DNA of 30,045 nt, from positions 1-30,045 of the forward strand of contig DASYTP010000009.1 in NCBI GenBank assembly GCA_036002145.1. The letters are read 5' to 3'. Within the stretch, counting starts at the first letter, position 1. Every line of letters starts with the position of its first letter. Of this stretch, positions 4,280 to 22,753 are shown in pieces. The DNA is from Bacteroidota bacterium (lineage in GTDB: Bacteria > Bacteroidota > Ignavibacteria > UBA10030 > SZUA-254). The notes under the pieces are model-generated. The model saw only the letters and a list, made by a program, of their open reading frames with translations, ran no database searches and was not told the origin of the DNA. The translations under genes and the position numbers were made by a program.

Positions 4280-4923
4280 TATTAGCGGATGATCACGCCG
4301 TTCTCCGAAGAGGTTTGAGACAACTCCTTGAGAGCGTCCCGGAATTCTCCATCGCCGGAGAAACCGACAATGGAAAAGAGGCTGTCGCGCTTGTGAGGCA
4401 ACATCGTCCGGACGTCGCGATCCTTGATATTTCGATGCCGGAAATGAGCGGTATTGAGGCCGCTAAAATCATCAAGGAAAACAACCCTGAGACGAAGATC
4501 CTGATACTCACGATCCATGACGATCAGGATTATGTTGTTCAGGTGATGCAGGCCGGTGCGGACGGCTACATCATTAAGAACTCAAGTCCCGAGGATATTA
4601 TCGAGGCCGTCCGGTGTGTCGCTGCTGGTCAGGAATATCTCGGTCAGGGTGTGTCCAGTATGATTGCCGAAAAATTCATCAGGGGCATCAAAGAGGCCAG
4701 CGGGGAGTACCGGCGAAAACTGCCCCACTTGACAAAAAGGGAAGTCGAAATTCTAAGATATGTCACACAGGGACTTACAAGCAAAGAGATATCGGACAAA
4801 CTCTCGCTCAGCGTCCGCACGGTGCATAGCCACAGAATGAATATCATGCAAAAGCTGAATATCCACGAGACCGCCGGACTTGTTACCTATGCAGTCAAGC
4901 ATGGACTCGTGAAGCTTGATTGA
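4261..4923 (+). CDS. NarL/LuxR-family response regulator
   Basis: LADDH, ILDISMP (phospho-Asp), GYIIK, C-terminal LTKREVEIL..TVHSHRMNIMQKL HTH; overlaps the kinase stop codon. Confidence 0.95.
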   Translation: MLGVKIVLADDHAVLRRGLRQLLESVPEFSIAGETDNGKEAVALVRQHRPDVAILDISMPEMSGIEAAKIIKENNPETKILILTIHDDQDYVVQVMQAGADGYIIKNSSPEDIIEAVRCVAAGQEYLGQGVSSMIAEKFIRGIKEASGEYRRKLPHLTKREVEILRYVTQGLTSKEISDKLSLSVRTVHSHRMNIMQKLNIHETAGLVTYAVKHGLVKLD

Positions 4924-5029
4924 CGCCTGGCTCACCCCCTCCGAACGATCACTCCTTAAATATCCTCGACCGTTGTACCTAAGTAGTACGCTCTATAAAC
5001 AGGAGCAAAAAAATACGCAATTTACCCGA

Positions 5030-5063
5030 TTGAATGGCTGCCAGGAAAAGATTATGTTATGAT
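5030..5063 (+). promoter_or_regulatory. Putative sigma70 promoter
   Basis: TTGAAT (5030-5035)-N17-TATGTT (5053-5058), with an overlapping extended -10 TGnTATGAT (5055-5063) in an AT-rich intergenic stretch. Confidence 0.4.
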
Positions 5064-5092
5064 CGAATAAGGATCCCTGGGTTGATCGACAG

Positions 5093-5341
5093 ATGAAAAA
5101 CATACGGGCTTTCAAAGGATCAAGATTCGTCAGTTCAGAGTTTGCCCCCTCGCGTGAGAAGCGTTACAGGCTGACCCGCGCTGATCTTTTAAGTTTGATC
5201 TGGACCATGGAACACGATCGGATACTCAATGCACCAATCGAGAAGATCGCGATGTTGAAGCAAATCCTGGTGACAGAGTACAAATTATTACCATCCTGCG
5301 GGCGAAGGAGTAAACACACCGGGGTACGCGTGCATGGATAA
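5093..5341 (+). CDS. Hypothetical 82-aa protein
   Basis: Same-strand ORF downstream of the putative promoter; its stop overlaps the ATG at 5334; weak RBS; no recognisable domain. Confidence 0.4.
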   Translation: MKNIRAFKGSRFVSSEFAPSREKRYRLTRADLLSLIWTMEHDRILNAPIEKIAMLKQILVTEYKLLPSCGRRSKHTGVRVHG

Positions 5342-5762
5342 GGAAACCAAAAATTGCCGGTCATTTTCCGGCGCAATAACGGTGCTTATTGCAGATAATG
5401 ACAAGGCACTCCGGTCAAATTTAAGATCGTTACTCAGACATGAGAATGCCCGGGTTGTGGCGGAAGTTGGAACGAGCAGGCGTGCAATAGTTGAAGCCGG
5501 GCTGCGGAAGCCTGATTTGATATTGATGGACTTTGCACTCTTGGAGGCAACTGCGCCGGAGATCGTAGGTCTCGTCGGGAAAGTTTCCCCAAAAACAGAG
5601 ATTACATTCATCACTCTGCACGACGAAAGCATATATGCGGACCTCACACAGGTAATGCATGTCCGCGGATTTATTGCAAAGCAGTCGTTAAACAGCGAGC
5701 TCCCCCGGGTCCTTCAAAATCTCAGGAAGATAAAGTATGCTCCCCGGTCAATGGTGGATTAG
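5334..5762 (+). CDS. Single-domain response regulator receiver (NarL-like REC, no output domain)
   Basis: VLIADND, PDLILMDFAL (phospho-Asp), FITLHD, GFIAKQ (conserved Lys). Confidence 0.8.
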   Translation: MDKETKNCRSFSGAITVLIADNDKALRSNLRSLLRHENARVVAEVGTSRRAIVEAGLRKPDLILMDFALLEATAPEIVGLVGKVSPKTEITFITLHDESIYADLTQVMHVRGFIAKQSLNSELPRVLQNLRKIKYAPRSMVD

Positions 5763-5775
5763 AGGAGCAGGGTGC

Positions 5776-5824
5776 GGCTGTCGCAACTCCAGAAAAAGGA
5801 GAGGTGACAAGAGTTGCGGCAGCC
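5776..5824 (+). other. Intergenic 14-bp hairpin with purine-rich loop
   Basis: GGCTGTCGCAACTC (5776-5789) pairs with GAGTTGCGGCAGCC (5811-5824) with one G-U; the 21-nt loop contains AAAGGAGAGGTGA. Confidence 0.7.
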
Positions 5825-5896
5825 CTCCATGTTTCACGTAACAGCGCTTCAGAACAGTCGGAACTATCAGAGATTATCGTGTTCACATCCCGATTA

Positions 5897-6925
5897 ATGC
5901 ACAATACATGGGGAATTGTCCTCGCCGGCGGCAATGGCAATAGGCTGCAACAATTCACCCGGCGGCTTTACGGCGACGAACGACCGAAGCAATACTGTGC
6001 GTTTACCGGAACGCGTTCGATGCTCGGTCATACCATTGATCGTGCGGAACGCGTAATACCAAGAAACAATATCTTGACGATCATAGACAGGTCTCATCTC
6101 CGATACTCTCAGATCGAGCTCAGGGAGCGTCCGGCGGAAACTGTTATCGTTCAGCCGGTGAATCGTGACACAGGCCCGGGTATCCTGCATCCTCTTCTTC
6201 ATATCTGCAGGAAAAACCGTGATGCATTGGTCGCGATCTTTCCGTCGGATCACTTTATCCTCGGAGAGGAGCGTTTTGCAGAAATCATGTCGGCGGCTCT
6301 TTCCCTGGCCGGATCTTCGCTTCAGACTCCTATTCTCCTTGGAGCGGCGCCGGATCGATGGGACACATCGTACGGATGGATAGACAAAGGTGTACGGACC
6401 GAAGATCACAAAGGCATGAGTATGTATCAAATTGGAAGATTTTGGGAAAAACCCGGGCCCGATTTGGCGCAAGCGCTATACCTCCGCGGATGCTTGTGGA
6501 ATACGTTGGTCATCATCGGCAGTGCCATGACCTTAGTGCAGATGTTTCGGCAATGGACACCACAACTGTTCAACCAGTTTGAGGAGATCCGAATCAGTTT
6601 CGGCTCACCTCGCGCGACAGAGACAGTGAAAGAAGTGTACTCCAGACTTCACCCGGTGAATTTCTCGACATCAATCCTCGAACCCGTCGCCGATCGTTTC
6701 CAGGTCCTTCCCCTGAGTGGGGTATATTGGGCAGACTGGGGCAGCGAGCAACAGATCATTTCGGATTGCAGGCGCTTCGGACTGGCGCTGCGAAAAGAGG
6801 AACCCGCCGCCTGTCACCTTCATGAAGGGAGGGAATTCACGCCGCGTCAAACGGAAGCTCTGAAGATAAAGTACAACAAATTTACGGAAGGTTTGGCGTA
6901 TGAGAAAAATCAAGAAAATCGTTAA
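5897..6925 (+). CDS. Sugar-phosphate nucleotidyltransferase, ManC/GDP-mannose pyrophosphorylase-like, no cupin domain
   Basis: VLAGGNGNRL..PKQY, RDTGPG, FPSDH, FWEKP, WADWGS. ATG 5897 is preferred to GTG 5804 because the family N-terminus begins there. Confidence 0.85.
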   Translation: MHNTWGIVLAGGNGNRLQQFTRRLYGDERPKQYCAFTGTRSMLGHTIDRAERVIPRNNILTIIDRSHLRYSQIELRERPAETVIVQPVNRDTGPGILHPLLHICRKNRDALVAIFPSDHFILGEERFAEIMSAALSLAGSSLQTPILLGAAPDRWDTSYGWIDKGVRTEDHKGMSMYQIGRFWEKPGPDLAQALYLRGCLWNTLVIIGSAMTLVQMFRQWTPQLFNQFEEIRISFGSPRATETVKEVYSRLHPVNFSTSILEPVADRFQVLPLSGVYWADWGSEQQIISDCRRFGLALRKEEPAACHLHEGREFTPRQTEALKIKYNKFTEGLAYEKNQENR

Positions 6926-6963
6926 CAATACGAAGCAGGGTTGCCTTTTGGGGCGATAGGGAA

Positions 6964-7044
6964 CGGCCTCGTCCCAGCTTGTCCCATTGGGGAAAAGTCC
7001 TTGGAGTCTCCATTCGCTGGTCGAAGAAGAGTGGGGCGAGGCCG
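6964..7044 (+). other. Long-range stem-loop upstream of lipoprotein gene
   Basis: CGGCCTCGTCCC (6964-6975) pairs with GGGGCGAGGCCG (7033-7044) with one G-U, enclosing small hairpins. Confidence 0.55.
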
Positions 7045-7066
7045 ATTGTTTATTCATGGAAGGAAT

Positions 7067-7570
7067 ATGACGATGAAATTCGCATTGTTCGTTGTTACAT
7101 TGATATCAGGATGCATGACCTCGTCGCCGCAAGTTGTACCTGTCCTCGTTGAAGGAGGTAACAGAGAATTACTGGTGGGGGAATGGGCGGGTGAATACAG
7201 CAGCTCCTCAAACCAGAGGAGCGGCAGTATTACCTTCAAGCTCGACCAGGGAAAAGATACTGCATTCGGCGATGTTCTGATGATCGCGCGCGGCTCGAAT
7301 CAGCGGTATTTTCCCGAGGATTATTCTCAAATTCCGAGGACGGATCCATTCGCGTCGCGAGTATTGGCAATTAAATTTGTTCACGTTGCCGGCGACAGTG
7401 TGCACGGACTCCTTGATCCTTACTGGGATCCGGACCGGAAGAGTACGGTTGTCACAACGTTTAAAGGGAAAGTGTTGACAAACCGAATCACCGGGACCTT
7501 CAACGGATACGACGTTTCGACGGGATACACCTTCTCGGGACGCTGGCAGGTTACGCGCAAGAATCCGTAG
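7067..7570 (+). CDS. Hypothetical lipoprotein, beta-rich
   Basis: GGAAGGA RBS then ATG 7067; signal MTMKFALFVVTLISG-C with lipobox LISGC; W-x-G-x-Y..G-x-I-x-F beta-strand pattern. Confidence 0.75.
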   Translation: MTMKFALFVVTLISGCMTSSPQVVPVLVEGGNRELLVGEWAGEYSSSSNQRSGSITFKLDQGKDTAFGDVLMIARGSNQRYFPEDYSQIPRTDPFASRVLAIKFVHVAGDSVHGLLDPYWDPDRKSTVVTTFKGKVLTNRITGTFNGYDVSTGYTFSGRWQVTRKNP

Positions 7571-7802: not shown

Positions 7803-7818
7803 TGGCATGCTTTTCTCA
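7803..7818 (+). promoter_or_regulatory. Degenerate sigma54 -24/-12 promoter
   Basis: TGGCATG-CTTT-TCTCA: good -24 element, but the -12 has TC instead of GC; about 50 nt upstream of ATG 7871. Confidence 0.35.
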
Positions 7819-7870: not shown

Positions 7871-8530
7871 ATGACAGTCCTCTTTGTAATTGCAACTATC
7901 ACTATCTTTCTCACTGTTGATTGGCTGGTCAGACGATACAGGGGCCAGCCGTTTATTCCGGCAGAAAAAATCCGCGGGACATATCCGGTTCGATTGCCCG
8001 ATGGGGTCTTTTTCGCGCCATCGCACACGTGGCTGAATCTCTACCCCTCCGGGACCCTTCGCCTCGGCGTTGATGACTTCATTGCCCGCCTCGTGGAGAG
8101 CCCGGAGATACTCCTTCTGAAATGCCCCGGCGATCACTTCCAAAAAGGGGATCCGCTCATCCAGCTGAAGGAAGGAAATCATGCGCTCACCATTCGATCT
8201 CCCCTTGAAGGAGAAATCGTGGCGATCAATGAAGAGTTGACCGCCGACCCATCGCTCCTGAGAGAGCGCATGTTCAGCAGCGGGTGGGGGTACATAATCA
8301 AGCCAAGCAGGATCGATGAAATAAAGACGATGCTCATCGGAAGCGAAACACGCTCATGGATCAGGAACGAATTTCAACGGCTGCGAGACCTCTTCGCTCA
8401 ATTGAACAACAAGGGATCGCTGGCACCCGCCTGCCTGCAGGATGGGGGGCCGCCGATTGCAGGAGTGTTACGTACGATGGACGACGTCGTATGGAAGCGG
8501 CTCGATAATGAATTTCTTCAAGTGGCGTAG
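7871..8530 (+). CDS. Membrane-anchored GcvH-fold protein lacking the lipoyl-lysine
   Basis: N-terminal TM then RRYR; HTW..LGVDDF..GD..SPLEGEIVAINEEL..GW H-protein signature; Asn103 at the ESVK Lys position; C-terminal QDGG. Confidence 0.85.
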   Translation: MTVLFVIATITIFLTVDWLVRRYRGQPFIPAEKIRGTYPVRLPDGVFFAPSHTWLNLYPSGTLRLGVDDFIARLVESPEILLLKCPGDHFQKGDPLIQLKEGNHALTIRSPLEGEIVAINEELTADPSLLRERMFSSGWGYIIKPSRIDEIKTMLIGSETRSWIRNEFQRLRDLFAQLNNKGSLAPACLQDGGPPIAGVLRTMDDVVWKRLDNEFLQVA

Positions 8531-8546
8531 CTGAAAGGAATCGACA

Positions 8547-9317
8547 ATGCGAAAAAGCAAAGCTCTTCTGATCGATACAACACTTTGCATCGGTTGCAAT
8601 GCGTGCCAGGAAGCATGCAAGAAAGAGTTCAATCTCCGGGAAGGGGAAGAAAAGAAACTTTCTCCAACAGCGTACACGGCGCTTGAAGAACACGACGGCA
8701 TTTTTGTGCGGAGGATGTGCCAGCACTGCGTCGAGCCGACATGCGTGTCGGTCTGCCCGGTCGGCGCATTCACGAAAACCCCTGAAGGACCGGTACTCTA
8801 CGATGAGTCAAAATGTATCGGGTGCAGGTATTGCATCCAGGCCTGCCCGTTCCAGGTCCCGCGATATGAATGGAACAGCACCCATCCGCGAGTGCAGAAA
8901 TGCAGGCTCTGCGTAGATCGCCTGAAGCAAGGTTTGCAACCGGCGTGCTCCGAAGCCTGTCCGACCGGGGCCACCAAGTTCGGCGACCGGGATGACTTGA
9001 TCCGCGAAGCCTACGAGCGCATCAAATCAGAACCGCAAAAATATGTCGACAGGATTTACGGCAAGGAAGAAGTAGGGGGCACATCGGTGCTGTATCTTTC
9101 CAGCGTGCCGTTCGAGCAGCTCGGCTTCAAGACAACTCTTGAGAATGTGGCGCTGCCGATGTACACCTGGAATGCGCTATCGAAAATCCCATCCGTGGTG
9201 GGGGTCGGCAGCGTGTTCCTCTACGGAATCTGGTGGATCACCAACCGGAGGATGGAGTTGCAAAAGTCGAATCATACGAACAACCATCAACAACGGAATT
9301 CTGAGGCGCGATCATGA
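8547..9317 (+). CDS. 4x[4Fe-4S] electron-transfer subunit, HybA/FdnH/DmsB-like, C-terminal TM, no Tat signal
   Basis: CIGCNACQEAC, CQHCVEPTCVSVCP, CIGCRYCIQACP, KCRLC..ACSEACP; IYGKEEVGGTSVLY; C-terminal hydrophobic helix then NRR. Confidence 0.93.
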   Translation: MRKSKALLIDTTLCIGCNACQEACKKEFNLREGEEKKLSPTAYTALEEHDGIFVRRMCQHCVEPTCVSVCPVGAFTKTPEGPVLYDESKCIGCRYCIQACPFQVPRYEWNSTHPRVQKCRLCVDRLKQGLQPACSEACPTGATKFGDRDDLIREAYERIKSEPQKYVDRIYGKEEVGGTSVLYLSSVPFEQLGFKTTLENVALPMYTWNALSKIPSVVGVGSVFLYGIWWITNRRMELQKSNHTNNHQQRNSEARS

Positions 9318-10510
9318 AACGCTATCTGACATCTCTCACGTTCTGGAAAGTAGTTGCAACACTCATCATGGCAACCGGATTGTATGCGACCTACGTACGT
9401 TTCACACAGGGTCTGGGAGCCACCACGAATCTCAGCGATCAATTTCCGTGGGGATTGTGGATCGGCTTCGATATCCTGTGCGGGGTCGGACTCGCGGCGG
9501 GAGGGTTCACGCTCGCGGCCATCGTGCACATTTTCCATGTCAAACGGTTCGAGCCGATTTTGCGCCCCGCCATCCTGACTGCGTTCCTCGGGTATCTCCT
9601 GGTCATCGTGGCATTGATGTATGACCTCGGCAGGCCGCTGCAGATCTGGCATGCAATCGTTATGTGGAACCCTCACTCGGTCATGTTCGAAGTCGCGTGG
9701 TGCGTCATGCTGTACACCACGGTACTCGCGCTTGAGTTCTCGCCCATCGTCCTTGAGAAATTCAGGATGACGAAGACGTTAAAACTCTTCAAACGAATTG
9801 CGCCCCCCTTGATTATCATCGGAGTCCTCCTTTCGACACTTCATCAATCGTCCCTCGGCTCCCTCTATCTCATCGTCCCCGAGAAGTTGTATTCGCTCTG
9901 GTATTCACCGTACCTGCCCGTATTTTTCTTCTTCTCCGCCGTCGCAGCGGGCTGCGCCATGATTATCTTCGAATCGTTCCTGAGTTCACGGGCATTCAAA
10001 AAAGGATTGGAGATGAACCTCCTGACGGAGATCGGACGGGTAAGCGTCGTGGCTCTTGCCGTATACCTGACGATGAAGATCATCGACCTTCTCAACCGCT
10101 CGGCGATGCCCCTGCTCTTCGTACCACGCATCGAGACCTACCTCTACTGGTTCGAGGTGAGCGCCGGGATCATCGCCCCCCTTGTGTTGCTGAGCATCCC
10201 GAGAGTCCGCGAGAATAAGATTGGATTGTTCCTGAGCTCGGTGCTGATTATCGTCGGGTTCATTCTCAATCGCATGAACCTGAGTATCACGGGGATGGAA
10301 GCATGGTCGGGCGTATCGTACTTCCCGTCGTGGATGGAGATTGCCGTCACCATATCAATTGTCACTGCCGGTTTCATCGTCTTCAGGTTGGCGGCGAGAT
10401 ATCTTCCGCTCTTTCAGCATGATTCGGGAGAGCCGGCACTGACGAACATTAGCGCGTTTGACGAGGAGCTTGTTCTCATTTCACAGCCACATGAAGCGGA
10501 GTTGCAATGA
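9314..10510 (+). CDS. NrfD/HybB-family integral membrane quinone-interacting subunit
   Basis: PWGLWIGFDILCGVGLAAGGF, DLGRP, SVMFEVAWC, LHQSSLGSL; about 10 hydrophobic segments; ATGA overlap with the upstream gene. Confidence 0.93.
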   Translation: MKRYLTSLTFWKVVATLIMATGLYATYVRFTQGLGATTNLSDQFPWGLWIGFDILCGVGLAAGGFTLAAIVHIFHVKRFEPILRPAILTAFLGYLLVIVALMYDLGRPLQIWHAIVMWNPHSVMFEVAWCVMLYTTVLALEFSPIVLEKFRMTKTLKLFKRIAPPLIIIGVLLSTLHQSSLGSLYLIVPEKLYSLWYSPYLPVFFFFSAVAAGCAMIIFESFLSSRAFKKGLEMNLLTEIGRVSVVALAVYLTMKIIDLLNRSAMPLLFVPRIETYLYWFEVSAGIIAPLVLLSIPRVRENKIGLFLSSVLIIVGFILNRMNLSITGMEAWSGVSYFPSWMEIAVTISIVTAGFIVFRLAARYLPLFQHDSGEPALTNISAFDEELVLISQPHEAELQ

Positions 10511-11271
10511 ACGTTTCACCGGACGATAGAACCGGGTTCCCGATCGTTCCGCCTCAGTTTCGATGCGTCTGGATGACCGCCGGGCTCCTTGCGTATCAAT
10601 TGTGCGACCGGAACTTCGATTGTGAGAATTGCCTTCTCGATAAGGCAATGCGGATGCACTTCATCCAGCATCAGGATGCGCCGGAACTTCAACGAGAAAC
10701 GAAGTCCGCCGCAACGAGATCGGAAGCTCACGAATACTTGTACAGCAGAAATCATTGGTGGATCCACAAACTCTCTGAGAACAGTTTTCGGATAGGAATC
10801 GAACCGACGCTGTCTTCCCTGCTGTTGTCCCCGAGAGAGATTGTCCTTCCACGGGCGGGTGAGCCACTCCGGCTGGGAAGGTTCAGCTGCTGGATCATTA
10901 TCGACAATGATGCGTTTCCTCTCGCCTCGCCCGTCTCCGGAACAGTGTTGCGAACAAACAAGCTTCTCCAGTCGAATCCTCAAATTCTCTGCACCCATCC
11001 CCTCACGCAAGGATGGCTCTTTGAAGTGGAATCAAGAACCGACGAGACGCAAGTGTCGTCCTGGATGACCAGGCGCCATGCAGACAAGAAATATCAGGCC
11101 GATTTCTCCCGCTTCAATGAGTCATTGAGTTCACTGCTGAGGAGCGATCACCCCCGTATCGGCACCACGATTCAGGATGGGGGGCAGATCTTCCTTCATG
11201 CCTCCAAGGCCGTCGGAACTCAGAAATACGTCGAGTTGCTGTTCGAAGCGTTCGGCCACGAACTTTCTTGA
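10507..11271 (+). CDS. Soluble GcvH-fold protein with N-terminal 4-Cys motif, lacking the lipoyl-lysine
   Basis: CVWMTAG..LCDRNFDCENC; HWW..IGI..SPVSGTV..N..L..GWLF; Asn134 at the Lys position; QDGG near the C-terminus; ATGA overlap. Confidence 0.85.
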   Translation: MNVSPDDRTGFPIVPPQFRCVWMTAGLLAYQLCDRNFDCENCLLDKAMRMHFIQHQDAPELQRETKSAATRSEAHEYLYSRNHWWIHKLSENSFRIGIEPTLSSLLLSPREIVLPRAGEPLRLGRFSCWIIIDNDAFPLASPVSGTVLRTNKLLQSNPQILCTHPLTQGWLFEVESRTDETQVSSWMTRRHADKKYQADFSRFNESLSSLLRSDHPRIGTTIQDGGQIFLHASKAVGTQKYVELLFEAFGHELS

Positions 11272-11510
11272 CCGCATTCTTGGCTGTTTGGGACATTCTT
11301 CTTCGGGATTTAGAATTTGTTTCGAATTTAGGTATTAGTGTTTTTCCCCAAGGGACTCCTTCGGAGGGATTTTGCTAGAAATCCTCGCTCCATCCAATGA
11401 AAGTAATCCGGGCTCTTCTCATCCTTAAGAATTTCCGCCATTATTTTTCGCAGAATTGACAACGAATCCATGAAATTCGGAAGATTCGTCGCGTGCTGAA
11501 TAATTAAACA

Positions 11511-11526
11511 TGGCACGAGAATTGCC
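11511..11526 (+). promoter_or_regulatory. Sigma54 -24/-12 promoter
   Basis: TGGCACG-AGAA-TTGCC matches TGGCACG-N4-TTGC with exact GG-N10-GC spacing, in an intergenic region. Confidence 0.8.
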
Positions 11527-11541
11527 CAAAATAGTGGTGAA

Positions 11542-13167
11542 ATGAGGCTTCCAATCCTCCATAGGTTGAGTGTTCGGGTGCTGGTGGGTTCCATTGCCAT
11601 CATGCTTACCTTCTTCGGCCTGTATTCTTACTTCACCGTCCGCTTCTACAACGATAAACTGATGGACCAGGTACTGTCGAGTGCAAACCGGATGAGCGAC
11701 GTCATCAAGCAATCGACTCATTACAGCATGCTGCTTAACCGCAGAGAGGATGTCTACCACATCATCACGATGATTGGAAAAGAACCCGGGGTGGAAGGCA
11801 TCCGCATCTACAACAAACGCGGTGAAATCATGTTCTCGACCGATAAACAGGAAGAACATACCGCCATCGATATGCACGCCGAGGCATGTTATGTCTGTCA
11901 CGAGCAGGAAAAACCTTTGTCGTCGCTGCCCATGAGCAACCGGACGCGCATTTTCGAGAGTGGAAACAGCCATCGCGTGCTCGGGGTCATCAATCCGATC
12001 CGCAATGAGCCGTCCTGCTCAGATGCCGAATGTCATGCACACCCGCCGGAGCGCACCGTTCTGGGGGTGCTCGACGTCAGAATGTCGTTAAAGAATCTTG
12101 ATGCCACAGTACATCAGGCGCAAAACACGATGGCGGTCTATGCCATCGCCGCCATTCTTGTCGTCGGGATCATTGTCGTCCTGTTCCTGTCATCCACCGT
12201 CCTCACACCGACACGACGCTTGATGGCGGGCGCGCAGCAGATTTCATCGGGAAACCTCTCGTACCACATCAGCGTCAACGCAAGGAACGAGCTGGGGAAG
12301 CTCGCGAAGGCATTTAATGAAATGACCCGATCGCTGAAGGGCGAAAAAGAGCAGAACCAGCGGTGGGCCGATACGCTCCAGCAGCGCGTCCGTGAAAAAA
12401 CCGACGAGCTGAATGCCATTCACAAACAGATCGTCCACATCGAGAAAATGGCATCGCTCGGAAAACTTGCGGCCACCATAGCGCACGAAATCAACAATCC
12501 TCTCGAGGCCATCTTGACCTATGCAAAGCTCATCGCCCGTCGCATACGAAAGGATGAGACGCAGGTTACGACAAACCGGCAAACCCTGGAGGACATTGAG
12601 CTCATTGCCCGCGAAACGGATCGGTGCGGCAACATTGTGAAGAACCTCCTGCTGTTCTCGAAAAAACAGACGGGCGAGTTCGCCATCGCTTCGCTGAAGA
12701 GCATCATCGATCATGCCTCACAGCTCGTTCAGCACCACTGCAGAATTTCGAACGTTGAGTTGAAGATACAGTTGCCGGAAGGGGACATTTCTCTTATGTG
12801 CGACGAGAACCAGCTTGATCAAGCCCTCGTCGCGCTTTTCGTAAACGCAGTCGAGGCAATGCCGGGCGGCGGCACGATTCGTGTCGAAGCGAAGAGCGCA
12901 TCTCATAACAATGTGCTCCTGACGATTTCGGATACGGGCATGGGGATTTCTGAAGCTGATCTTCCCTTCATTTTCGAGCCGTTCTTCACAACGAAAAAAG
13001 ATGGCCGGGGAGTGGGATTGGGGCTGTCAGTCGTCTATGGAATTCTGGAGCGACACGGCGGATCCATCTCAGTGGTGTCCGCAGTCGGAAAAGGAACGAC
13101 GTTTACCCTGAGTTTCCCACGCGTTCCACACGAACTTCCACATGCTGCCGAGAATGCACATCAGTGA
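11542..13167 (+). CDS. Membrane sensor histidine kinase with periplasmic heme-c motifs, HAMP, HisKA, HATPase
   Basis: Two TMs; periplasmic CYVCH and CSDAECH; HAMP NELGKLAKAFNEM; H-box AHEINNPL; N-box FVNAVEAM, DTGMG, FFTTK, GVGLGL. Confidence 0.95.
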   Translation: MRLPILHRLSVRVLVGSIAIMLTFFGLYSYFTVRFYNDKLMDQVLSSANRMSDVIKQSTHYSMLLNRREDVYHIITMIGKEPGVEGIRIYNKRGEIMFSTDKQEEHTAIDMHAEACYVCHEQEKPLSSLPMSNRTRIFESGNSHRVLGVINPIRNEPSCSDAECHAHPPERTVLGVLDVRMSLKNLDATVHQAQNTMAVYAIAAILVVGIIVVLFLSSTVLTPTRRLMAGAQQISSGNLSYHISVNARNELGKLAKAFNEMTRSLKGEKEQNQRWADTLQQRVREKTDELNAIHKQIVHIEKMASLGKLAATIAHEINNPLEAILTYAKLIARRIRKDETQVTTNRQTLEDIELIARETDRCGNIVKNLLLFSKKQTGEFAIASLKSIIDHASQLVQHHCRISNVELKIQLPEGDISLMCDENQLDQALVALFVNAVEAMPGGGTIRVEAKSASHNNVLLTISDTGMGISEADLPFIFEPFFTTKKDGRGVGLGLSVVYGILERHGGSISVVSAVGKGTTFTLSFPRVPHELPHAAENAHQ

Positions 13168-13221
13168 GAAGAATAGGACCACAATTTCGCAACCTGAAAA
13201 TCACAGACCGGAGAATGGAAT

Positions 13222-14316
13222 ATGATATCTAACGCCGAGCCGTTCAGAAGCCAAACCGATCGTTTCAGAGGGCTGAAACATATGATCGGAAATACGCCGT
13301 TGCTGGCGATTCATTGTACGTTCAGGGGGAGTCGCCGCGTCATCTACGCAAAAGCCGAGCATGTCAACATGACCGGAAGTATCAAGGACCGCATGGCATT
13401 CCACATACTCCAGCGAGCGTACGCGGATGGGAAACTTCGTCCGGGGGACACCATCGTTGAAGCAACAAGCGGCAACACGGGAATCTCGTTCGCCGCGATC
13501 GGCAAAGCCCTGGGCCATCCGGTTGTCATCTTCATGCCCGACTGGATGAGCCAGGAACGGACGAATCTCATCCAAAGTATGGGTGCAAAAATTAATCTCG
13601 TGACCCGAGAAGAAGGGGGGTTCCTGGGCAGCATTCGCATGGCGGAGGAATTCGCACGCACGCACGATCATATATTTCTGCCCCAACAATTCTCGAATGG
13701 GGCAAACGTCGAAGCACACGCGGAAACGACGGGACCGGAGATCTGGTGGCAACTATCTTTTCAATCCTTAGTCCCCGACGCGTTCGTCGCTGGAGTTGGG
13801 ACCGGCGGCACGATCATGGGTGCAGGTCGCTTCCTTCGCAGCCGGAATTCCACTACGCGGATTTATCCGTTGCAGCCGGCAGAATCCCCCACGTTGACGA
13901 CCGGGCATAAAATAGGTCATCATAGAATCCAGGGGGTGTCGGACGAGTTTATTCCCCCTATTGTGGCGCTCAACGAGCTCGATCGCGTCATCAGCGTTCA
14001 TGATGGCGATGCGATCCTCATGGCTCAGAAACTTGCCTCCCGGCTGGGGCTCGCCGTAGGTATTTCCTCAGGAGCGAATTTTATAGGTGCTCTGATGGTT
14101 CAGGACGAGCTTTCGAGCGATGCCGTCGTCACGACTGTTTTTCCGGATGACAACAAGAAATACCTGAGCACCGATCTGCTGAGGGAGGAATCGATCATGA
14201 AAGATTATCTCTCACCCGGGATCGAGCTGCTCAGCTACCAAGCCTTTAAACGGGTCTGTCACACGTGCTGCGACCTCTATGATTGCACGCAGCATATTGC
14301 TTCTGAAATAATCTGA
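13222..14316 (+). CDS. PLP-dependent cysteine synthase family protein (CysK/CysM-like) with Cys-rich tail
   Basis: IGNTP, GSIKDR (PLP Lys), [26 protein letters not shown]; C-terminal [10 protein letters not shown]. Substrate is uncertain. Confidence 0.9.
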
Positions 14317-14340
14317 TAACGTTACAATACGAGGATACCA

Positions 14341-15687
14341 ATGAATTCTACATCTTCTCTCCTGATTATCGACGATGAAAGCATTGTGCGCGATTCACTT
14401 TCGAAGTGGTTCCACGAGGATGGATTCCACGTCGGCACGGCGGAGAACGCTGCCGCCGCCCTCCGCCACCTCCAAGAACAGCGGTGGGATATAATTCTCC
14501 TCGACATCAAAATGCCCGGCATGGACGGGATGGAACTTCAGCGAAGGATCATGGAGATCGATCCGCACGCGACGATTATTTTTATCACTGCCCATGCATC
14601 CGTTGAAACGGCGGTAGAGGCGTTAAAGCGGGGAGCATTCGATTACGTCACCAAGCCGGTGGACCCCGATCACCTGTCCCACCTTGTGCGTAATGCTCTC
14701 AAGCAGCGCGGATTAGCGCTGGAAAATGTCAAACTGAAAGAACACGTGACAGAGTTCTCCAGGATCGACGACCTCATCGGTGAATCTCCCCAGATGAAAA
14801 AAGTCTATGAGCTGATTCAAACCGTTGCGCCAACCGATACGACGGTGATGATCCGCGGTGAGAGCGGAACCGGGAAAGAGCTCATCGCGCGCGCGATACA
14901 CTCCCACAGCCGGCGAAAGTATTTCCCGATCGTGACGGTAAATTGCGGGGCATTACCGGAAGGCATCCTTGAGAGTGAGCTGTTCGGTCATGAACGGGGA
15001 GCGTTCACGGGGGCACAATATCAGCGAAAAGGCAGACTTGAGCTCGCCGATGGTGGAACGCTCTTCCTCGATGAAGTCGGTAACATCAACATGAAGACGC
15101 AGATGGACCTCTTGCGCGTTATTGAGACACAACAGTTTTCCAGGGTTGGCGGAAATGCAATTCTCAATACGGACTTCCGAGTCATTTGCGCCACGAATAA
15201 AGATCTCGAAAAGGCGGTCGCCGATGGAACGTTCAGAGAGGATCTTTATTATCGACTCAACGTATTCTCTATCGCGATTCCGCCATTGCGCGAGCGCAAG
15301 TCCGATATTCCATCAATTGCAAACTATTTTGTAAAAAAATATTCACAGGCGATGGGAAAACAGATAGCCGCTGTCTCTTCCGGGGCAATGGACGTATTGA
15401 TCCGCTACGACTGGCCCGGGAACGTCAGGGAACTGGAGAATGCGATTGAGCGGGCGATCGTCATCGGGAAACCGCCTTGTATCCGCCCGGAGGACCTCCC
15501 TTTTCTCTCCCCGGCAAGAAACTCGGCAAACGGCTCCGGGACGCTTGCCTTGGTCGAAAGAGAACATATTGCCGCCGCGTTGACTGAGAATCGTTGGAAC
15601 ATTTCACGATCGGCGGAAATTCTCGGCATCGATCGCGTCACGCTCTATAACAAGATCGCAAAGTACGGGCTCCAGAGACCCGCGTGA
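14341..15687 (+). CDS. Sigma54-dependent response regulator (NtrC/AtoC/ZraR family; REC-AAA+-Fis HTH)
   Basis: IIDDE, LLDIKMP, GESGTGKE, ESELFGHERGAFTGA, LFLDEV, DLYYRL, WPGNVRELEN, C-terminal HTH. Confidence 0.97.
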   Translation: MNSTSSLLIIDDESIVRDSLSKWFHEDGFHVGTAENAAAALRHLQEQRWDIILLDIKMPGMDGMELQRRIMEIDPHATIIFITAHASVETAVEALKRGAFDYVTKPVDPDHLSHLVRNALKQRGLALENVKLKEHVTEFSRIDDLIGESPQMKKVYELIQTVAPTDTTVMIRGESGTGKELIARAIHSHSRRKYFPIVTVNCGALPEGILESELFGHERGAFTGAQYQRKGRLELADGGTLFLDEVGNINMKTQMDLLRVIETQQFSRVGGNAILNTDFRVICATNKDLEKAVADGTFREDLYYRLNVFSIAIPPLRERKSDIPSIANYFVKKYSQAMGKQIAAVSSGAMDVLIRYDWPGNVRELENAIERAIVIGKPPCIRPEDLPFLSPARNSANGSGTLALVEREHIAAALTENRWNISRSAEILGIDRVTLYNKIAKYGLQRPA

Positions 15688-16259
15688 CAAGTTTGATTCA
15701 CATTATTAACGCTTCACACCTGCCCGACAGCGATTTGCAGCCCATCGCTGACGCTGTCGAGCGTGTTTTTCGCCGTCCGGTCAGGCTGCAGCGGAGACCT
15801 CTTGATTATGAGCGAGCGTTTGACGACTCCCGTGGACAATTCAGCTCGGGTATTCTCCTTGGGCAACTGCTGGCCGACGACAACCTCATCGGGAGAAAAG
15901 AAATTGTTGTTGTGGATGTCGACTTATTCATTCCCGTGCTCACGTTTATCTTCGGCGAGGCACAATTTGAAGGAGCAGCTGCCATAGTTTCCGCCTACAG
16001 ACTCTCCGACGAGTTTTACGGCCTGCCAACGGATCACGCAAAACTTCTGACGCGTCTTGAAAAGGAAGTCGTCCACGAGCTCGGGCATACTTTTGGGCTC
16101 TATCACTGCCATCAGTTCGAGTGCGTCATGCGCTCTTCGACGTATGTTGAAGAAATCGACCTCAAACAATCGACCCCCTGCCTGGAATGCCGGCGCCTGC
16201 TTGACCGGAAGAATGAGAACTCCTCTCTGCCAGAGATAAGACTTCAGGAAAGTTTATGA
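15684..16259 (+). CDS. amzA: Archaemetzincin-family Zn metalloprotease
   Basis: HELGHTFGLYHC (HExxHxxGxxH), then C-x4-C-x-M..IDxK..CxxC; GTGA overlap with the regulator stop. Confidence 0.9.
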   Translation: MTSLIHIINASHLPDSDLQPIADAVERVFRRPVRLQRRPLDYERAFDDSRGQFSSGILLGQLLADDNLIGRKEIVVVDVDLFIPVLTFIFGEAQFEGAAAIVSAYRLSDEFYGLPTDHAKLLTRLEKEVVHELGHTFGLYHCHQFECVMRSSTYVEEIDLKQSTPCLECRRLLDRKNENSSLPEIRLQESL

Positions 16260-16711
16260 GTATCATTTTCAGCCGTCAATGCGAGTATGCCATTCAAGCA
16301 GTCCTCTATCTCGCCCTGCATCCGCAGAATGAAAAGACCTCCATCAGGGAACTTACAAAGGTACTGAAGATTCCCTATCACTTCCTGGCGAAGATTCTTC
16401 AAAAGTTAACCCACAAAGGACTCCTTCATTCTCAAAAGGGTCTGGCAGGCGGATTCTCTCTTGCGCGGCCGGCCGCGAACATCACCCTTTTCGAAATCAT
16501 CGAGGCGATCGATGGCAATGGCCTCATGCACAACTGCATACTCGGATTTCCGGAGTGCTCAGAGTCAGACCCGTGCGCGCTGCACGACCAGTGGCTCAAG
16601 TCGCGCGACGGCATATATCAGCTGTTGGCAAACGATACAATCAATCATCTTGCCTCACGAATGAAGAAGCCACAATACCTGACTGAGATACTACAAACAG
16701 GTTGCCCCTAA
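16256..16711 (+). CDS. Rrf2-family transcriptional regulator with probable Fe-S ligands
   Basis: EYAIQA, LAKILQKL..G..GGF.L..I.L.EII.AIDG; C94, C101, C107, H110 in IscR-like spacing. Confidence 0.93.
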   Translation: MSIIFSRQCEYAIQAVLYLALHPQNEKTSIRELTKVLKIPYHFLAKILQKLTHKGLLHSQKGLAGGFSLARPAANITLFEIIEAIDGNGLMHNCILGFPECSESDPCALHDQWLKSRDGIYQLLANDTINHLASRMKKPQYLTEILQTGCP

Positions 16712-16891: not shown

Positions 16892-16928
16892 TCGGATAAA
16901 ATTGTCTTATTTTGGCACGCCGATTGTA
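16892..16928 (+). promoter_or_regulatory. Sigma54-like promoter with adjacent Rrf2-type operator candidate
   Basis: TGGCACG-CCGA-TTGTA (16913-16928), immediately preceded by the imperfect palindrome TCGGATAAAATTGTCTTA (16892-16909). Confidence 0.55.
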
Positions 16929-17119
16929 CCTTAGTACGCGAACGATGGTGACAATGTAAAATAACCGAACGAAATTTGGATTCTGACAATTGGTCTCTCT
17001 CAAAAATGAGAAAAGAATTGCAAACGCTTATCATAATTGATAAGGAACGCTTATCATTTCAGCGAACTCCTTCTGACAAAAGTGAATTGGCTGCCGGCAC
17101 GACGAATGGAGTGCCAAAA

Positions 17120-18274
17120 ATGGCCGTAAGAAAGCTCGCTCCGGAATTACGCCGAAGGAAGAGTAGCTGGAGCCGGGAGTCCGTTTGGTACAAACGACTG
17201 ATGTTGCGATTGAGAGAAGATTCACAATTTCTTCGCACGGTCATCCAGTCGGCGTTCTTGCTGCTGTGCGTATGGATTGGCGTTGAGTTTTACCTCTTCA
17301 CTCGTTGGGGGACGTCGGGTGGGCAGGCTTCGTACTTCCCTCGCCCGCCAGGGGCTGAAGGATTTCTTCCGATCAGCGCTCTCATCAGTTTGAAGTACTG
17401 GCTTGGAACCGGGATTGTCAACGAAGTCCATCCTGCCGGACTTTTTATCTTCATCGCTGTTGTCCTTGTCGGCCTGGCATTGAAGAAGGCGTTTTGCAGC
17501 TGGCTGTGTCCGATCGGAACATTGAGCGAGTCTCTCTGGCTGTTTGGAAAGAAGGTCTTCGGGAAGAACATCGGGGTCACAAAATGGCTCGATTATCCAC
17601 TGAGGTCATTAAAGTACTTGCTGCTCTTCTTTTTCGTTTACTCCATTGCGCAGATGGACACGGCCTCGATGAAGGCATTTATTTACAGCCCGTATAACAA
17701 AATGGCCGACGTAAAGATGTGGCTCTTCTTTGCAAATATCACCACGTTCGCGACCTGGTCGATCATTATCCTCGTGGTGTTTTCTCTTATTATCAAAAAC
17801 TTCTGGTGCCGATTCCTTTGCCCTTACGGGGCATTGCTCGGCGCACTGAGCTGGCTGAGTCCGCTGAAGATCACAAGGAACAAGTCGACATGCATCGACT
17901 GTGAATTATGCACCAAGGCGTGTCCTTCTCAAATCAGAGTTCACAAGGCAGGCCAATCCCGTTTCCCGATTTCATCGGGATTCGGGCAAGTCTGGAGCGA
18001 TGAGTGCATGAATTGCCTGCAGTGCGTTGAAGTTTGCCCGGTCAAGAACACGCTTGACATACGAACATCACTGACGCATACGCCTGTCCCGAATTGGATT
18101 TTTGGGACACTCGTCGCCGGAGTATTCATCGCTATCACGGGTCTTGCAATGATGACAGGACATTGGAAGAACGGCATCGCACAGGATGAGTATTCGAAGC
18201 GGTTCGAGAATATCGATTCACCACTGTATCAGCACAACCGGGGCAGCGTGCCACGGTACAACGAATCCGATTAA
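17120..18274 (+). CDS. Membrane polyferredoxin, NapH/MauN/NosH-like
   Basis: FCSWLCPIG and WCRFLCPYG (CxxxCP), CIDCELCTKACP, CMNCLQCVEVCP, several TMs. Start placed at ATG 17120 (GGAG at 17108-17111). Confidence 0.88.
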   Translation: MAVRKLAPELRRRKSSWSRESVWYKRLMLRLREDSQFLRTVIQSAFLLLCVWIGVEFYLFTRWGTSGGQASYFPRPPGAEGFLPISALISLKYWLGTGIVNEVHPAGLFIFIAVVLVGLALKKAFCSWLCPIGTLSESLWLFGKKVFGKNIGVTKWLDYPLRSLKYLLLFFFVYSIAQMDTASMKAFIYSPYNKMADVKMWLFFANITTFATWSIIILVVFSLIIKNFWCRFLCPYGALLGALSWLSPLKITRNKSTCIDCELCTKACPSQIRVHKAGQSRFPISSGFGQVWSDECMNCLQCVEVCPVKNTLDIRTSLTHTPVPNWIFGTLVAGVFIAITGLAMMTGHWKNGIAQDEYSKRFENIDSPLYQHNRGSVPRYNESD

Positions 18275-18294
18275 TAACTAGCAGGAGACAACTT

Positions 18295-18783
18295 ATGGCA
18301 GAATATACCGTCACAGGATATTACGAAACAGACCACGACCGGCTCGATGAATTGTTTAAGCATTTTCAGCAGCTCAAACGAACCGATTTCACGAAGGCAA
18401 GACTCTGCTTCAAGGAATTTAAGTTCGGACTGCAACGACACATCATCTGGGAGGAAGAAATCCTCTTCCCGCTCTTTGAGCAAAAGACCGGTCTTGTGCA
18501 CGGCGGACCGACAGAAGTCATGCGCCGAGAGCACCGGCTCATCGGCAAATATCTCGAAGATATTCACGAGAAAGTCAAAGCACAGAACCCTGACAGCGAT
18601 GACGATGAACTTATGCTCCTCTATACCCTCCTGGCGCATAACCAGAAAGAAGAACAGATCCTCTACCCGGCGATCGACAGAGCCATCACAGAACCTGAAC
18701 GGGGGAATGTTTTCTCCACGATGAAGAATATGCCGGAAGAGCGGTACAGTTACTGTTGTACACCGGAAAACCGGAAGAAGTAA
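18295..18783 (+). CDS. Hemerythrin/HHE cation-binding domain protein
   Basis: DHDRLDELF, HIIWEEEILFP, EHRLI, HNQKEEQILYP; GGAG RBS. Confidence 0.9.
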   Translation: MAEYTVTGYYETDHDRLDELFKHFQQLKRTDFTKARLCFKEFKFGLQRHIIWEEEILFPLFEQKTGLVHGGPTEVMRREHRLIGKYLEDIHEKVKAQNPDSDDDELMLLYTLLAHNQKEEQILYPAIDRAITEPERGNVFSTMKNMPEERYSYCCTPENRKK

Positions 18784-18841
18784 ACTCCGCTCAATGTTGA
18801 ATTACATTTGAAAAGATTTTTCACGATAGATACACTGTGCC

Positions 18842-20737
18842 ATGTCCGAAAAGTATTCCGTTCAAATACCCGATATTGAGTTCTGGAAGAACCTTGTCCC
18901 CTGCCAGATCGGATGTCCGATTCACACCGATGCCGGGCGGTACGTTCAGTTGATCGCCGAGCAAAAGTACAAAGACGCATACCTCACTGCGCGCTCACCC
19001 AATCCTTTTGCGAGCGTGTGTGGTCGTGTTTGCGCTGCCCCGTGCGAAGACTGGTGCCGGCGCGGAAAGATCGACGCACCGGTGAGCATCCGCGCGCTCA
19101 AGCGGTTTGTCACGGAAAAATACGGGGTGGAATCTCTCGAGCCTGATACGCTGGACATCCTGTTCCAAGGGGGCAACGAATCGGGGAACAAATGGCCCGG
19201 GCATCTTCCTGTTCAGGTTGAATCCCGAAGAATCATCGTCAAAGACAAACGAGTCGCGGTTATCGGTTCCGGTCCGGCCGGGCTTTCGTGCGCGCATGAT
19301 CTTGCACTCATGGGCTACAAGGTGACTGTCTTCGAATCAACGGGAATTGCAGGTGGCATGCTGCGGCACGGTATTCCGGAGTATCGCCTTTCCCGCAGTC
19401 TGATCGATAAAGAGATCGATAAGATTTCCTTCCTTGGGGTTGAGATTCGTTATCATTCGCCCTTGACTGAAAATTTCGGGATCAAGGAACTGAAAGCTCA
19501 AGGGTTTGGAGGAGTGTTTGTCTCCGTAGGCACGCAGAAAGGACGCGACCTCAATGTCGAAGGATCCAATCTCGACGGGGTCATCAAGGCGATTGATTAC
19601 CTCATCAACATCAACAATGGTTATCGGGTAAATCTTGGCAGAAAGGTGTTGGTTATCGGAGGCGGATTCGTCGCGTTCGATGCAGCGCGTACCGCGATTC
19701 GCGGTGAGCGGGAAGCCTCGGATATACATGCAGCAGTGGACGCGGCACGCACGGCGAAACGAGGCGGCGCCACCGAAGTCCACGTCGCAAGCCTCGAATC
19801 GTTCGAAGAAATGCCCGTTCTCCGCACCGCACAGGGTCATGAGGAGTTCGAAGAGGCGAAAAAAGAAGGCATCGTCTTCCACCCTCAACGTGGACCGAAA
19901 CGATTCATCGGCGAGGCGGGAAAATTGAAAGGGATCGAGTTTATCGGCGTCAAGCGAACGTACGACGAACTTGGACGGTTCAATCCCCAATATGATGAAC
20001 ACCTCTCGGAAATATTCGACGCAGATACGGTTATTGTGGCTATCGGACAACAAACGGATCTTTCGTTCATCAAGCCCGCTGACGGGATCGAAACGACGCC
20101 GGGCGGACTGATCAAGATACGACCTGAAACCCTTGCGACAACAGCCGCAGGCGTTTATGCCGGAGGCGATGTTGCCTTCGGTCCCCGTAATATTATCGAC
20201 GCAGTCGCGAACGGCAAGAAAGCGGCTCTCTCGATCGATGAATACCTCCGGGGACAAAAACCCGAGACATTCTACAACCTGGATATCCACAAAATTCAAA
20301 CCCGGCGATTTACGAGACCTGAAGACTATGAGCAGCATCCGCGGGAAGCGCCGCCGACAATAGACCTGAACCGGCGGACGGGGATTTCGGAAGTTGAGAC
20401 CGGATACACGGAGGAGCAGGCCCGACATCAGGCGGAGCGCTGTCTGCACTGCCACGTGCAGACCATTTACGATGCCGATAAATGTGTGATGTGCAATCGC
20501 TGTGTCGATATATGCCCGGAATACTGTTTGAAACTCGTTCCGCTCGAACAGCTCGAAGTTGACGGTCAGACAAAATCACAACTCATCGGGCAATACGGAC
20601 TCGATCCGTTTCAACCCGCATCAGCAATGCTTAAGGATGAAGAAACCTGCATCAGGTGCGGGCTGTGTGCTCTGCGCTGCCCGACAGATGCGATGACGAT
20701 GGAAGTGTTTTACTACGAGCAAAAAGAAGTCGTATGA
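18842..20737 (+). CDS. GltD/NfnB/DsrL-like FAD-dependent NAD(P)H oxidoreductase with C-terminal 2x[4Fe-4S] ferredoxin
   Basis: N-terminal CQIGCP..NPF..CGRVC.APCE..C; GSGPAG; GGMLRHGIPEYR; VIGGGFVA; AGGD..GP..IIDAVANGK; RCLHC, CVMCNRCVDICP, CIRCGLCALRCP. Confidence 0.92.
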   Translation: MSEKYSVQIPDIEFWKNLVPCQIGCPIHTDAGRYVQLIAEQKYKDAYLTARSPNPFASVCGRVCAAPCEDWCRRGKIDAPVSIRALKRFVTEKYGVESLEPDTLDILFQGGNESGNKWPGHLPVQVESRRIIVKDKRVAVIGSGPAGLSCAHDLALMGYKVTVFESTGIAGGMLRHGIPEYRLSRSLIDKEIDKISFLGVEIRYHSPLTENFGIKELKAQGFGGVFVSVGTQKGRDLNVEGSNLDGVIKAIDYLININNGYRVNLGRKVLVIGGGFVAFDAARTAIRGEREASDIHAAVDAARTAKRGGATEVHVASLESFEEMPVLRTAQGHEEFEEAKKEGIVFHPQRGPKRFIGEAGKLKGIEFIGVKRTYDELGRFNPQYDEHLSEIFDADTVIVAIGQQTDLSFIKPADGIETTPGGLIKIRPETLATTAAGVYAGGDVAFGPRNIIDAVANGKKAALSIDEYLRGQKPETFYNLDIHKIQTRRFTRPEDYEQHPREAPPTIDLNRRTGISEVETGYTEEQARHQAERCLHCHVQTIYDADKCVMCNRCVDICPEYCLKLVPLEQLEVDGQTKSQLIGQYGLDPFQPASAMLKDEETCIRCGLCALRCPTDAMTMEVFYYEQKEVV

Positions 20738-20807
20738 TTGTCACTGATTTCACAGAAACAAACGCAGATTACAGATTACGCGGATTCTTCACTGGAGTTG
20801 ATGCCGT

Positions 20808-21362: not shown

Positions 21363-21378
21363 CTCGAATGGAGTGGGC

Positions 21379-22704: not shown

Positions 22705-22753
22705 AGGCGTGGGATATGAGATGTGAGCAAAACAACTTCCTGAAAACGTTGCT

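Follow-up and report, generated by a model that had tools for sequence, protein, structure and literature searches.

What does an iron–sulfur (Fe-S)/NrfD membrane module do when it is encoded without an enzyme to serve, beside a sensor kinase with c-type haem motifs and two H-protein-fold proteins that cannot carry lipoate? The question is raised by a 30,045-nucleotide (nt) stretch of an Ignavibacteria genome (contig DASYTP010000009.1 of assembly GCA_036002145.1; hereafter the window), in which nine closely packed genes, g1 to g9, occupy positions 7871-16711 of the + strand, the strand that also bears the promoters, g10, and the PFOR and DHO_dh-like genes described below. A sequence-only reading of the first eight genes had seen in them an undescribed module that senses or relays redox or sulfur status. 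The most likely answer, in the light of the analysis reported here, is that the cassette reads and responds to the respiratory redox state. In a fuller version of that answer, held with modest confidence, a redox-responsive sigma-54 circuit would govern its own dedicated quinone module, and in this lineage the ferredoxin-linked oxidation of 2-oxoacids as well.

The genes form a unit that is conserved across phyla. Eighty related loci were recovered with a profile of g4 homologues, and the presence of each gene was scored by tblastn with the window proteins, and only the 47 loci whose 10-kb flanks were complete entered the per-gene counts. The loci span at least seven phyla, including Ignavibacteriota/Bacteroidota, Acidobacteriota, Eisenbacteria, Desulfobacterota, Planctomycetota, Gemmatimonadota, and KSB1. 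The kinase was present in 45 of the 47 loci, the activator and the NrfD subunit in 43 each, the Fe-S subunit in 42, further GcvH-like genes in 41, and the archaemetzincin in 36. De novo clustering of all open reading frames (ORFs) of the loci returned no additional family in more than 15 of them, and thus no constant extra partner; the next commonest families were subunits of 2-oxoacid:ferredoxin oxidoreductase (OFOR). The layout was confirmed by independent gene calls and precomputed Pfam annotation in one Acidobacteriota chromosome and one Ignavibacteriota contig. Within the order to which the window belongs, a g4-family match (E<=1e-25) was found in 69 of 121 sampled genomes and the kinase sensor domain in 98 of 121. 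When the sensor domain was used as the query, every paralogue examined except L129 adjoined an Fe-S/NrfD module with GcvH-like genes, and this arrangement also holds in one family of the order that lacks g4.

Gene assignments rest on Pfam and NCBIfam profile matches of the window ORFs, and they bear out most of what had been read from the letters: eight co-oriented genes, 4-nt overlaps (ATGA at 9314 between g2 and g3, ATGA at 10507 between g3 and g4, and GTGA at 15684 between g7 and g8), sigma-54 promoters, and a kinase with a CxxCH motif. A fourth overlap, ATGA at 16256, couples g9 to g8. Neither gcvP/T nor lipoate ligase, nor a molybdopterin or NiFe subunit, was found in the cluster, again as had been stated. 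More broadly, neither the window cluster nor any of the 80 loci of its type was found to have a linked catalytic subunit (hydrogenase, molybdoenzyme, or multihaem cytochrome).

Four variants of the cassette can be distinguished. The window type is marked by an Fe-S subunit that lacks a signal peptide; in the second type, this subunit bears a twin-arginine translocation (Tat) signal, RRxFLK, and a third H-fold gene, anchored by a transmembrane (TM) helix, comes after NrfD. The cytochrome type consists of a Tat-bearing Fe-S subunit, NrfD, a multihaem cytochrome c, the kinase, and a receiver-GcvH fusion. In the Qrc type, which was reached by following the sensor domain and not g4, the kinase, archaemetzincin, and activator genes stand beside GcvH-like, QrcA, QrcB, QrcC, QrcD, and GcvH-like genes, a layout seen in 18 of 20 regions sampled. 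QrcA (208 bits, cut-off 180) and QrcD (578 bits, cut-off 570) of this type both pass their NCBIfam equivalog thresholds, so that Qrc complexes as defined by these families are present in sister loci such as L115. The window proteins score far lower against the same families (QrcC, 75 bits with a cut-off of 400; QrcD, 162 with a cut-off of 570), and the window has neither QrcA nor QrcB. The window variant has no known catalytic subunit; homologous clusters sometimes contain further redox subunits, namely a multihaem cytochrome c, or QrcA and QrcB to complete a Qrc complex. What stays constant is the kinase with its pair of haem motifs, together with the sigma-54 activator, the H-fold proteins, and, in most cases, the protease; the NrfD-family quinone module is what varies.

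In the window, that module is encoded by g2 and g3. The g2 gene (8547-9317), which starts MRKSKALLIDTTLC 16 nt past the g1 stop codon, encodes a HybA/HmcB-like ferredoxin with a C-terminal TM anchor (Fer4_11, 91.6 bits; HmcB, 263, and HybA, 204, the last two below their equivalog cut-offs). Its 16 cysteines fall into four groups of the CxxCxxCxxxC type, sufficient for four [4Fe-4S] clusters, and the first cluster cysteine is residue 14. The g3 gene (9314-10510), translationally coupled to g2 by ATGA, encodes an NrfD-family quinone-interacting membrane subunit with ten hydrophobic cores, of the 10-helix HybB/HmcC subgroup (Pfam NrfD, 89.2 bits with a cut-off of 25.8; HmcC, 335, and HybB, 286, both below the equivalog cut-offs). 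An N-in/C-in topology is predicted for g3 on the basis of its Lys/Arg bias (17.9 versus 6.3 in the window group; 25.1 versus 7.0 in the Tat-bearing group). An inverted NrfD topology was considered as an account of the Tat-less Fe-S subunit and was ruled out by the equal bias in both groups. The orthologues of g2 likewise fall into a Tat-less and a Tat-bearing (RRxFLK) group; g2 itself has no Tat signal, and no Tat-bearing neighbour is encoded in the window cluster. Its C-terminal hydrophobic stretch is followed by NRRMELQK, and because this anchor and basic tail are kept in both groups, they argue for a periplasmic Fe-S domain as in HybA.

Fe-S/NrfD pairs, seen with short flanks, also exist elsewhere in genomes whose g4 locus lacks them. 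In one Ignavibacteriota metagenome-assembled genome (MAG), the Fe-S gene was called in two pieces of 150 and 94 residues (L109, 8008-8802, the same place as in L004), which probably reflects a frameshift or an assembly error. Contig C71 of the window genome carries, at about 2373-5957, a separate cytochrome c/molybdopterin-like/Fe-S cluster of the Qrc or ACIII type.

A module without a catalytic subunit could simply be part of an incomplete enzyme, the Tat-less Fe-S subunit being co-exported with a Tat-bearing catalytic or QrcB-like subunit that is encoded elsewhere, and the whole serving as a regular respiratory reductase or oxidase. NrfC-type subunits without a signal are as a rule exported with a Tat-bearing partner, and precisely such a pairing is found in the Qrc-type sister cluster, where the QrcB-like protein has the Tat signal TRRDILK and the QrcC-like protein has none; moreover, the window genome is only 68% complete and contains the C71 cluster. 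This explanation is nonetheless improbable, given that about 25 Tat-less loci from several phyla are without such a neighbour, that the Tat-bearing variant, which has a signal of its own, likewise lacks a catalytic neighbour, and that the Fe-S gene of C71 is a separate paralogue, the C71 complex having its own Fe-S subunit.

Among the constant parts is a two-component system. The g5 gene (11542-13167) was recognised by its domain matches as a HAMP-HisKA-HATPase kinase, with a sensor domain predicted to be periplasmic. Between its two TM helices lie the motifs CYVCH (C116xxC119H120) and CSDAECH, and this combination of CxxCH and Cx4CH is invariant or nearly so in 64 homologues and is kept by all kinase paralogues and variant clusters; two c-type haems would, by these motifs, be attached to the sensor. 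The AlphaFold2 (AF2) model of the sensor (pLDDT 81) has a PDC/Cache-like fold and matches the sensor domains of WalK, KinD, and CitA. A Pfam search returned a weak match to PF21563 (14.4 bits with a cut-off of 27; E 0.047) and none to DUF3365. The g7 gene (14341-15687) encodes an NtrC-type sigma-54 enhancer-binding response regulator (Response_reg, Sigma54_activat, AAA_lid_14, and HTH_8). Together with promoters nearby, the HisKA/HATPase kinase and the REC, AAA+, and HTH domains of the activator make up the parts of an NtrC-type sigma-54 two-component system.

Downstream of the activator, g8 (15684-16259) encodes an archaemetzincin (Peptidase_M54) zinc protease, with a score against NCBIfam archmetzin of 148.9 bits, above the cut-off of 145. 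The catalytic motif HExxHxxGxxH (H131/E132/H135/G138/H141) and the zinc-site cysteines C142/C147/C166/C169 are invariant in 46 sequences, in agreement with the published archaemetzincin signature of HExxHxxGxxH and a four-Cys structural zinc site (PMC13325395).

The H-fold proteins are a further constant element. Membrane-anchored g1 (type A; 7871-8530; Pfam GCV_H, 47 bits) begins with an N-terminal TM helix followed by RRYR, and soluble g4 (type C; 10507-11271; Pfam GCV_H, 43 bits; assigned by alignment and AF2) has an N-terminal Cys4 motif. Against NCBIfam gcvH, the window H-fold proteins reach 35-49 bits, below the cut-offs of 116-117. When aligned to solved H proteins, both have Asn at the lipoyl-lysine position (N103 in g1, opposite the lipoyl Lys of the pea and E. 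coli H proteins, and N134 in g4), which upholds the earlier description of the pair as lipoyl-less; across the g4 family, this column holds G, E, D, or N, and it is variable in type A. The fold itself is well supported: the AF2 model of g4 matches 22 solved H proteins (E<=2.8e-6, TMt 0.75-0.91), and its core superposes on them with a TM score of 0.84-0.91. Other features are conserved. C20, C33, C39, and C42 at the N-terminus of g4 are invariant in the alignment of its homologues. All three H-fold types that are not fused conserve a C-terminal DGG, which g1 has and which is kept in 40 of the 49 type A copies; in the AF2 model of g4, it lies in a low-confidence loop of the C-terminal helical tail. 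A Pfam search with the Cys4 head of g4 and the DGG tails matched no family. The family is large, the g4 profile collecting 485 clusters at 50% identity with E<=1e-30. Pfam and NCBIfam scans of the window contained neither gcvT nor gcvP, and a canonical 133-residue gcvH sits on a separate contig (C48) of the same genome. Receiver-GcvH fusions occur in sister clusters, and a protein atlas holds a cluster with that architecture; judged by this domain pairing, the fusions show a link of the H fold to signalling and a putative phosphorelay.

Sigma-54 promoters connect these parts into a candidate circuit. In front of the kinase-regulator-protease operon, TGGCACGAGAATTGCC at 11511-11526 departs from the sigma-54 consensus at one position, and 14 related loci have an equivalent site at a distance of 29-107 nt before the kinase gene. 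The g1-g4 operon is preceded by TGGCATGCTTTTCTCA at 7803-7818, of the form TGGCAT-N6-TCTCA with a non-canonical -12 element; counting the window, 16 loci have a TGGCAY-N6-TTyCA element before their first GcvH-like gene, at a distance of 60-100 nt. In divergent arrangements of the operons, g4 has a sigma-54 element in front of it. By number alone, the sigma-54 matches of the window do not exceed chance (2 versus 0.92 expected; two or more in 29 of 100 shuffles), and the support for the promoters therefore derives from their placement and conservation, not from their count.

The same type of promoter extends to genes of 2-oxoacid oxidation. A pair of genes for single-chain PFOR and a DHO_dh-like protein flanks the cassette in 9-11 loci, and the window pair at 6-2803, comprising the 3' part of the PFOR gene and the DHO_dh-like gene (both by Pfam), belongs to that synteny. 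In 14-15 other loci, a ferredoxin-dependent (Fd) OFOR alpha/beta/gamma operon comes after the protease gene. Inspection of 15 loci showed sigma-54-type promoters ahead of the OFOR or PFOR operon in 14, among them a conserved GGCAY-N5-TTGY promoter before the Fd-OFOR operons downstream of the M54 gene (L003, L006, L007, L009, L010, L016, L018, L019, L023, and L028). In a MAG labelled Ignavibacterium album (L023), cassette and Fd-OFOR operon are found together. It is thus likely that the PFOR/OFOR genes are members of the cassette regulon in this clade. In nine loci, a TTCYCA-N6-7-GxTAA element lies 64-79 nt upstream of the sigma-54-like site (76-79 nt in six), most of these sites preceding OFOR operons; it is a candidate activator or IHF site. 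Near-identical copies of TGGAATGATTMTTGYA were also observed upstream of the single-chain PFOR gene in L033, L036, L039, and L044, and this sequence looks like a sigma-54 promoter with A for C at -22.

Taken together, these observations are best accommodated by a circuit in which the PDC-type domain of g5, with its two c-haem attachment motifs, would read the redox state of a periplasmic or quinone-linked electron-transfer chain. The kinase would then phosphorylate g7, which would switch on the sigma-54 promoters of the kinase operon, of the g1-g4 operon, and, in Ignavibacteria, of the neighbouring 2-oxoacid:ferredoxin oxidoreductase genes. Expression of g1-g4 would yield a minimal QrcCD/HybAB-type module, whose four-cluster ferredoxin, seated on the haem-free 10-helix NrfD subunit, may exchange electrons between menaquinone and periplasmic carriers. 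The lipoate-free H-fold proteins, on the cytoplasmic face, would serve as accessory or regulatory subunits and not as cofactor carriers, and the archaemetzincin may act on some component of the circuit; the part first proposed for it, that of tuning the two-component system, is hypothetical. Several points weigh against this proposal. The location of g2 is uncertain, given that it has no Tat signal and no Tat-bearing neighbour; this variant encodes no periplasmic redox partner nearby apart from the kinase; no shared activator-binding site was found among the three promoter regions of the window; and, searched with a strict pattern, canonical sigma-54 sites are rare before Qrc-type operons (1 of 20 loci).

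A distinct proposal, less probable than the regulated circuit, takes the module not for a respiratory enzyme but for the input of the kinase. The Fe-S/NrfD pair would equilibrate the two periplasmic haems of g5 with the menaquinone pool, the kinase activity would report the redox state of that pool, and the H-fold proteins would relay or gate the signal on the cytoplasmic side. Orphan HybA/HybB-like pairs usually have a periplasmic c-type cytochrome as neighbour (bioRxiv 10.1101/2023.11.02.564894), and in the cassette the kinase sensor takes that position: it is the sole c-haem protein of the window-type and Tat-bearing clusters, no cytochrome or QrcB match having been found in the 80 loci. 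The adjacency of kinase and module is very tight and often co-directional, and the receiver-GcvH fusions would also be in keeping with such wiring. Nevertheless, sigma-54 promoters before the module operon are what would be expected of an output, the sister variants are ordinary quinone:cytochrome complexes, Qrc included, and the Fe-S subunit of the window is without an export signal. Doubtful, and slightly more so, is the combined claim that the Fe-S/NrfD pair is a dedicated wire to the kinase haems, the H-fold proteins are new signalling adaptors, and the DGG loop is a cleavage site of the archaemetzincin. Because homologous clusters sometimes contain further redox subunits and sigma-54 promoters precede the module operon, a regulated module for quinone:periplasm electron transfer, equipped with a sensor of its own, is no less likely than a device for sensing alone, which modifies the redox half of the function first proposed.

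The sulfur half of that proposal fared worse. It depended on g6 (13222-14316), which encodes a CysK-family pyridoxal phosphate enzyme (PALP, 227 bits; cysKM, 307 bits, below the cut-off of 344) with an SxKDR-type motif, SIKDR, and which had been counted as a member of the system. A sulfur relay, in which the CysK-like enzyme and the GcvH-fold adaptors would sense sulfur status, can point to the place of g6 between the kinase and regulator genes in the window genome and to the four-Cys motif of g4. Yet tblastn detected a CysK-like gene in 0 of the 80 related loci, the 47 with complete flanks among them; in other loci, the genes for kinase and activator abut or overlap. Orthologues of g6 with 70-73% identity occur in four relatives, one of the same genus, and none lies beside kinase or activator genes. 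Since it is found in none of the related loci and is placed elsewhere in the same-genus relative, g6 is a lineage-specific insertion outside the conserved cassette, and its membership was ruled out. With the CysK-like gene outside the conserved unit, the sulfur-sensing idea has no basis; nor does any sulfur-metabolism gene recur among the de novo families of the loci. Contradicted by the neighbourhood survey, a sulfur relay is highly unlikely. The protein has a C-terminal extension of about 45 residues with a Cys-rich end, and the orthologues in the four relatives keep most of its length and are placed at unrelated loci.

The importance of the cassette lies in its reach and in its parts. Some form of it is found in over half of the sampled genomes of the window's order, and its distinctive components are without a known role: a large lipoate-incapable H-fold family, the bacterial archaemetzincins, and an enzyme-free NrfD/Fe-S module. 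The cassette gives each of them a defined genetic context and connects them with menaquinone complexes of the Qrc type found beyond the sulfate reducers. It also suggests a redox switch, one that may control the ferredoxin-dependent oxidation of 2-oxoacids by facultative anaerobes, the Ignavibacteria among them. Should the module feed electrons to the kinase, a new principle of quinone-pool sensing would emerge, distinct from the thiol chemistry of the ArcB type; should the DGG loop be cleaved by the archaemetzincin, it would be the first physiological substrate of that protease family.

The surroundings of the conserved genes are less constant. The ninth gene, g9 (16256-16711; Rrf2, 113.8 bits), encodes an Rrf2 regulator with three Cys and is present in 9 of the 47 loci, only in the closest sub-clade; its C-x6-C-x5-C motif is typical of Fe-S-binding Rrf2 members. 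A NapH/NosR-like Fer4_5 membrane ferredoxin, g10, comes after the Rrf2 gene in L001, L017, L033, and L044 and is a possible local target; in the window, g10 and the sigma-54-type promoter TGGCACGCCGATTGTA ahead of it (16913-16928) together span 16913-18274. Otherwise the window holds PFOR, an unrelated two-component system, and a nos cluster. Upstream, positions 2804-7570 encode a PAS kinase, a LuxR-type regulator, a lone receiver, a nucleotidyltransferase, and an orphan 209-residue ORF, which are found in this genome only; in relatives, PFOR/DHO_dh directly abuts the cassette. Downstream, from 16913 to 30028, the order is a sigma-54-type promoter, the NapH/NosR-like Fer4_5 protein, a hemerythrin, a GltD-like flavoprotein, Rieske and cytochrome b, a multihaem cytochrome c, and nosZ, nosD, nosF, and nosY. 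A link of the cassette to the nos cluster was ruled out, no nos gene having been found in any related locus.

How, then, does the cassette relate to systems already described? In accordance with the sequence-only reading, no published description of it was found in the searchable literature, and a review of the NrfD family mentions neither kinases nor H proteins. The published system nearest in logic is that of Geobacter, likened here by description and not by comparison of sequences. There, the sigma-54 regulator BccR (GSU0598) adjoins GSU0599 and turns on CbcBA, a quinone oxidoreductase, when the potential is low (bioRxiv 10.1101/2021.04.15.440034), and two c-haem motifs are reported for the periplasmic PAS-like sensor of the GSU0599 kinase (PMC3831638). 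Both systems thus have a REC-sigma54-HTH activator beside a two-motif c-haem kinase, and the divergent arrangement of this pair from a sigma-54-dependent operon, encoding in Geobacter hypothetical proteins, a response receiver, and an inner-membrane quinone oxidoreductase, is mirrored in L055, L056, L071, L074, L079, and L080. Unlike the window module, the membrane module of Geobacter is composed of a dihaem cytochrome b and a seven-haem cytochrome c instead of Fe-S/NrfD, and neither an archaemetzincin nor an H-fold protein is reported for it. In the search for the Geobacter proteins GSU0597, GSU3489, and GSU0596, the control genomes were found to lack the family, and the homologues returned came from MAGs only. 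Other periplasmic haem-c sensors, namely the PAS-like domains of Geobacter GSU0582/GSU0935 and sCache_haem (DUF3365), similarly combine a PDC/Cache-like fold with CxxCH (PMC12889525), but g5 differs in having two motifs, the second of which is Cx4CH.

As for the H-fold proteins, they share with GcvH and its lipoate-carrying relatives LbpA and GcvH-L the barrel-sandwich fold described above. Unlike these, they have another residue at the lipoyl lysine position, carry an additional N-terminal TM helix or Cys4 motif and a C-terminal helical tail with DGG, and are without gcvT/P, lipoate ligase, or sHdr genes near them. The best-scoring families for the membrane module are HybA/HybB of E. coli hydrogenase-2 and HmcB/HmcC of the Desulfovibrio Hmc complex, with which it has in common a tail-anchored four-cluster ferredoxin and a 10-helix NrfD subunit; it differs from them in the absence of a hydrogenase, a 16-haem cytochrome, and HmcDEF, and in the Tat-less g2. 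Last but not least, QrcABCD, the menaquinone reductase of sulfate reducers, likewise has a periplasmic Fe-S subunit with four clusters, seated on an NrfD-type subunit that is free of haem and reacts with menaquinone. The window differs from it in having no QrcA and QrcB and in the HybA-like C-terminal anchor of g2, which QrcC does not have; the same order also contains true Qrc complexes that have the same H-fold genes on their flanks and are under the control of kinases from the same family.

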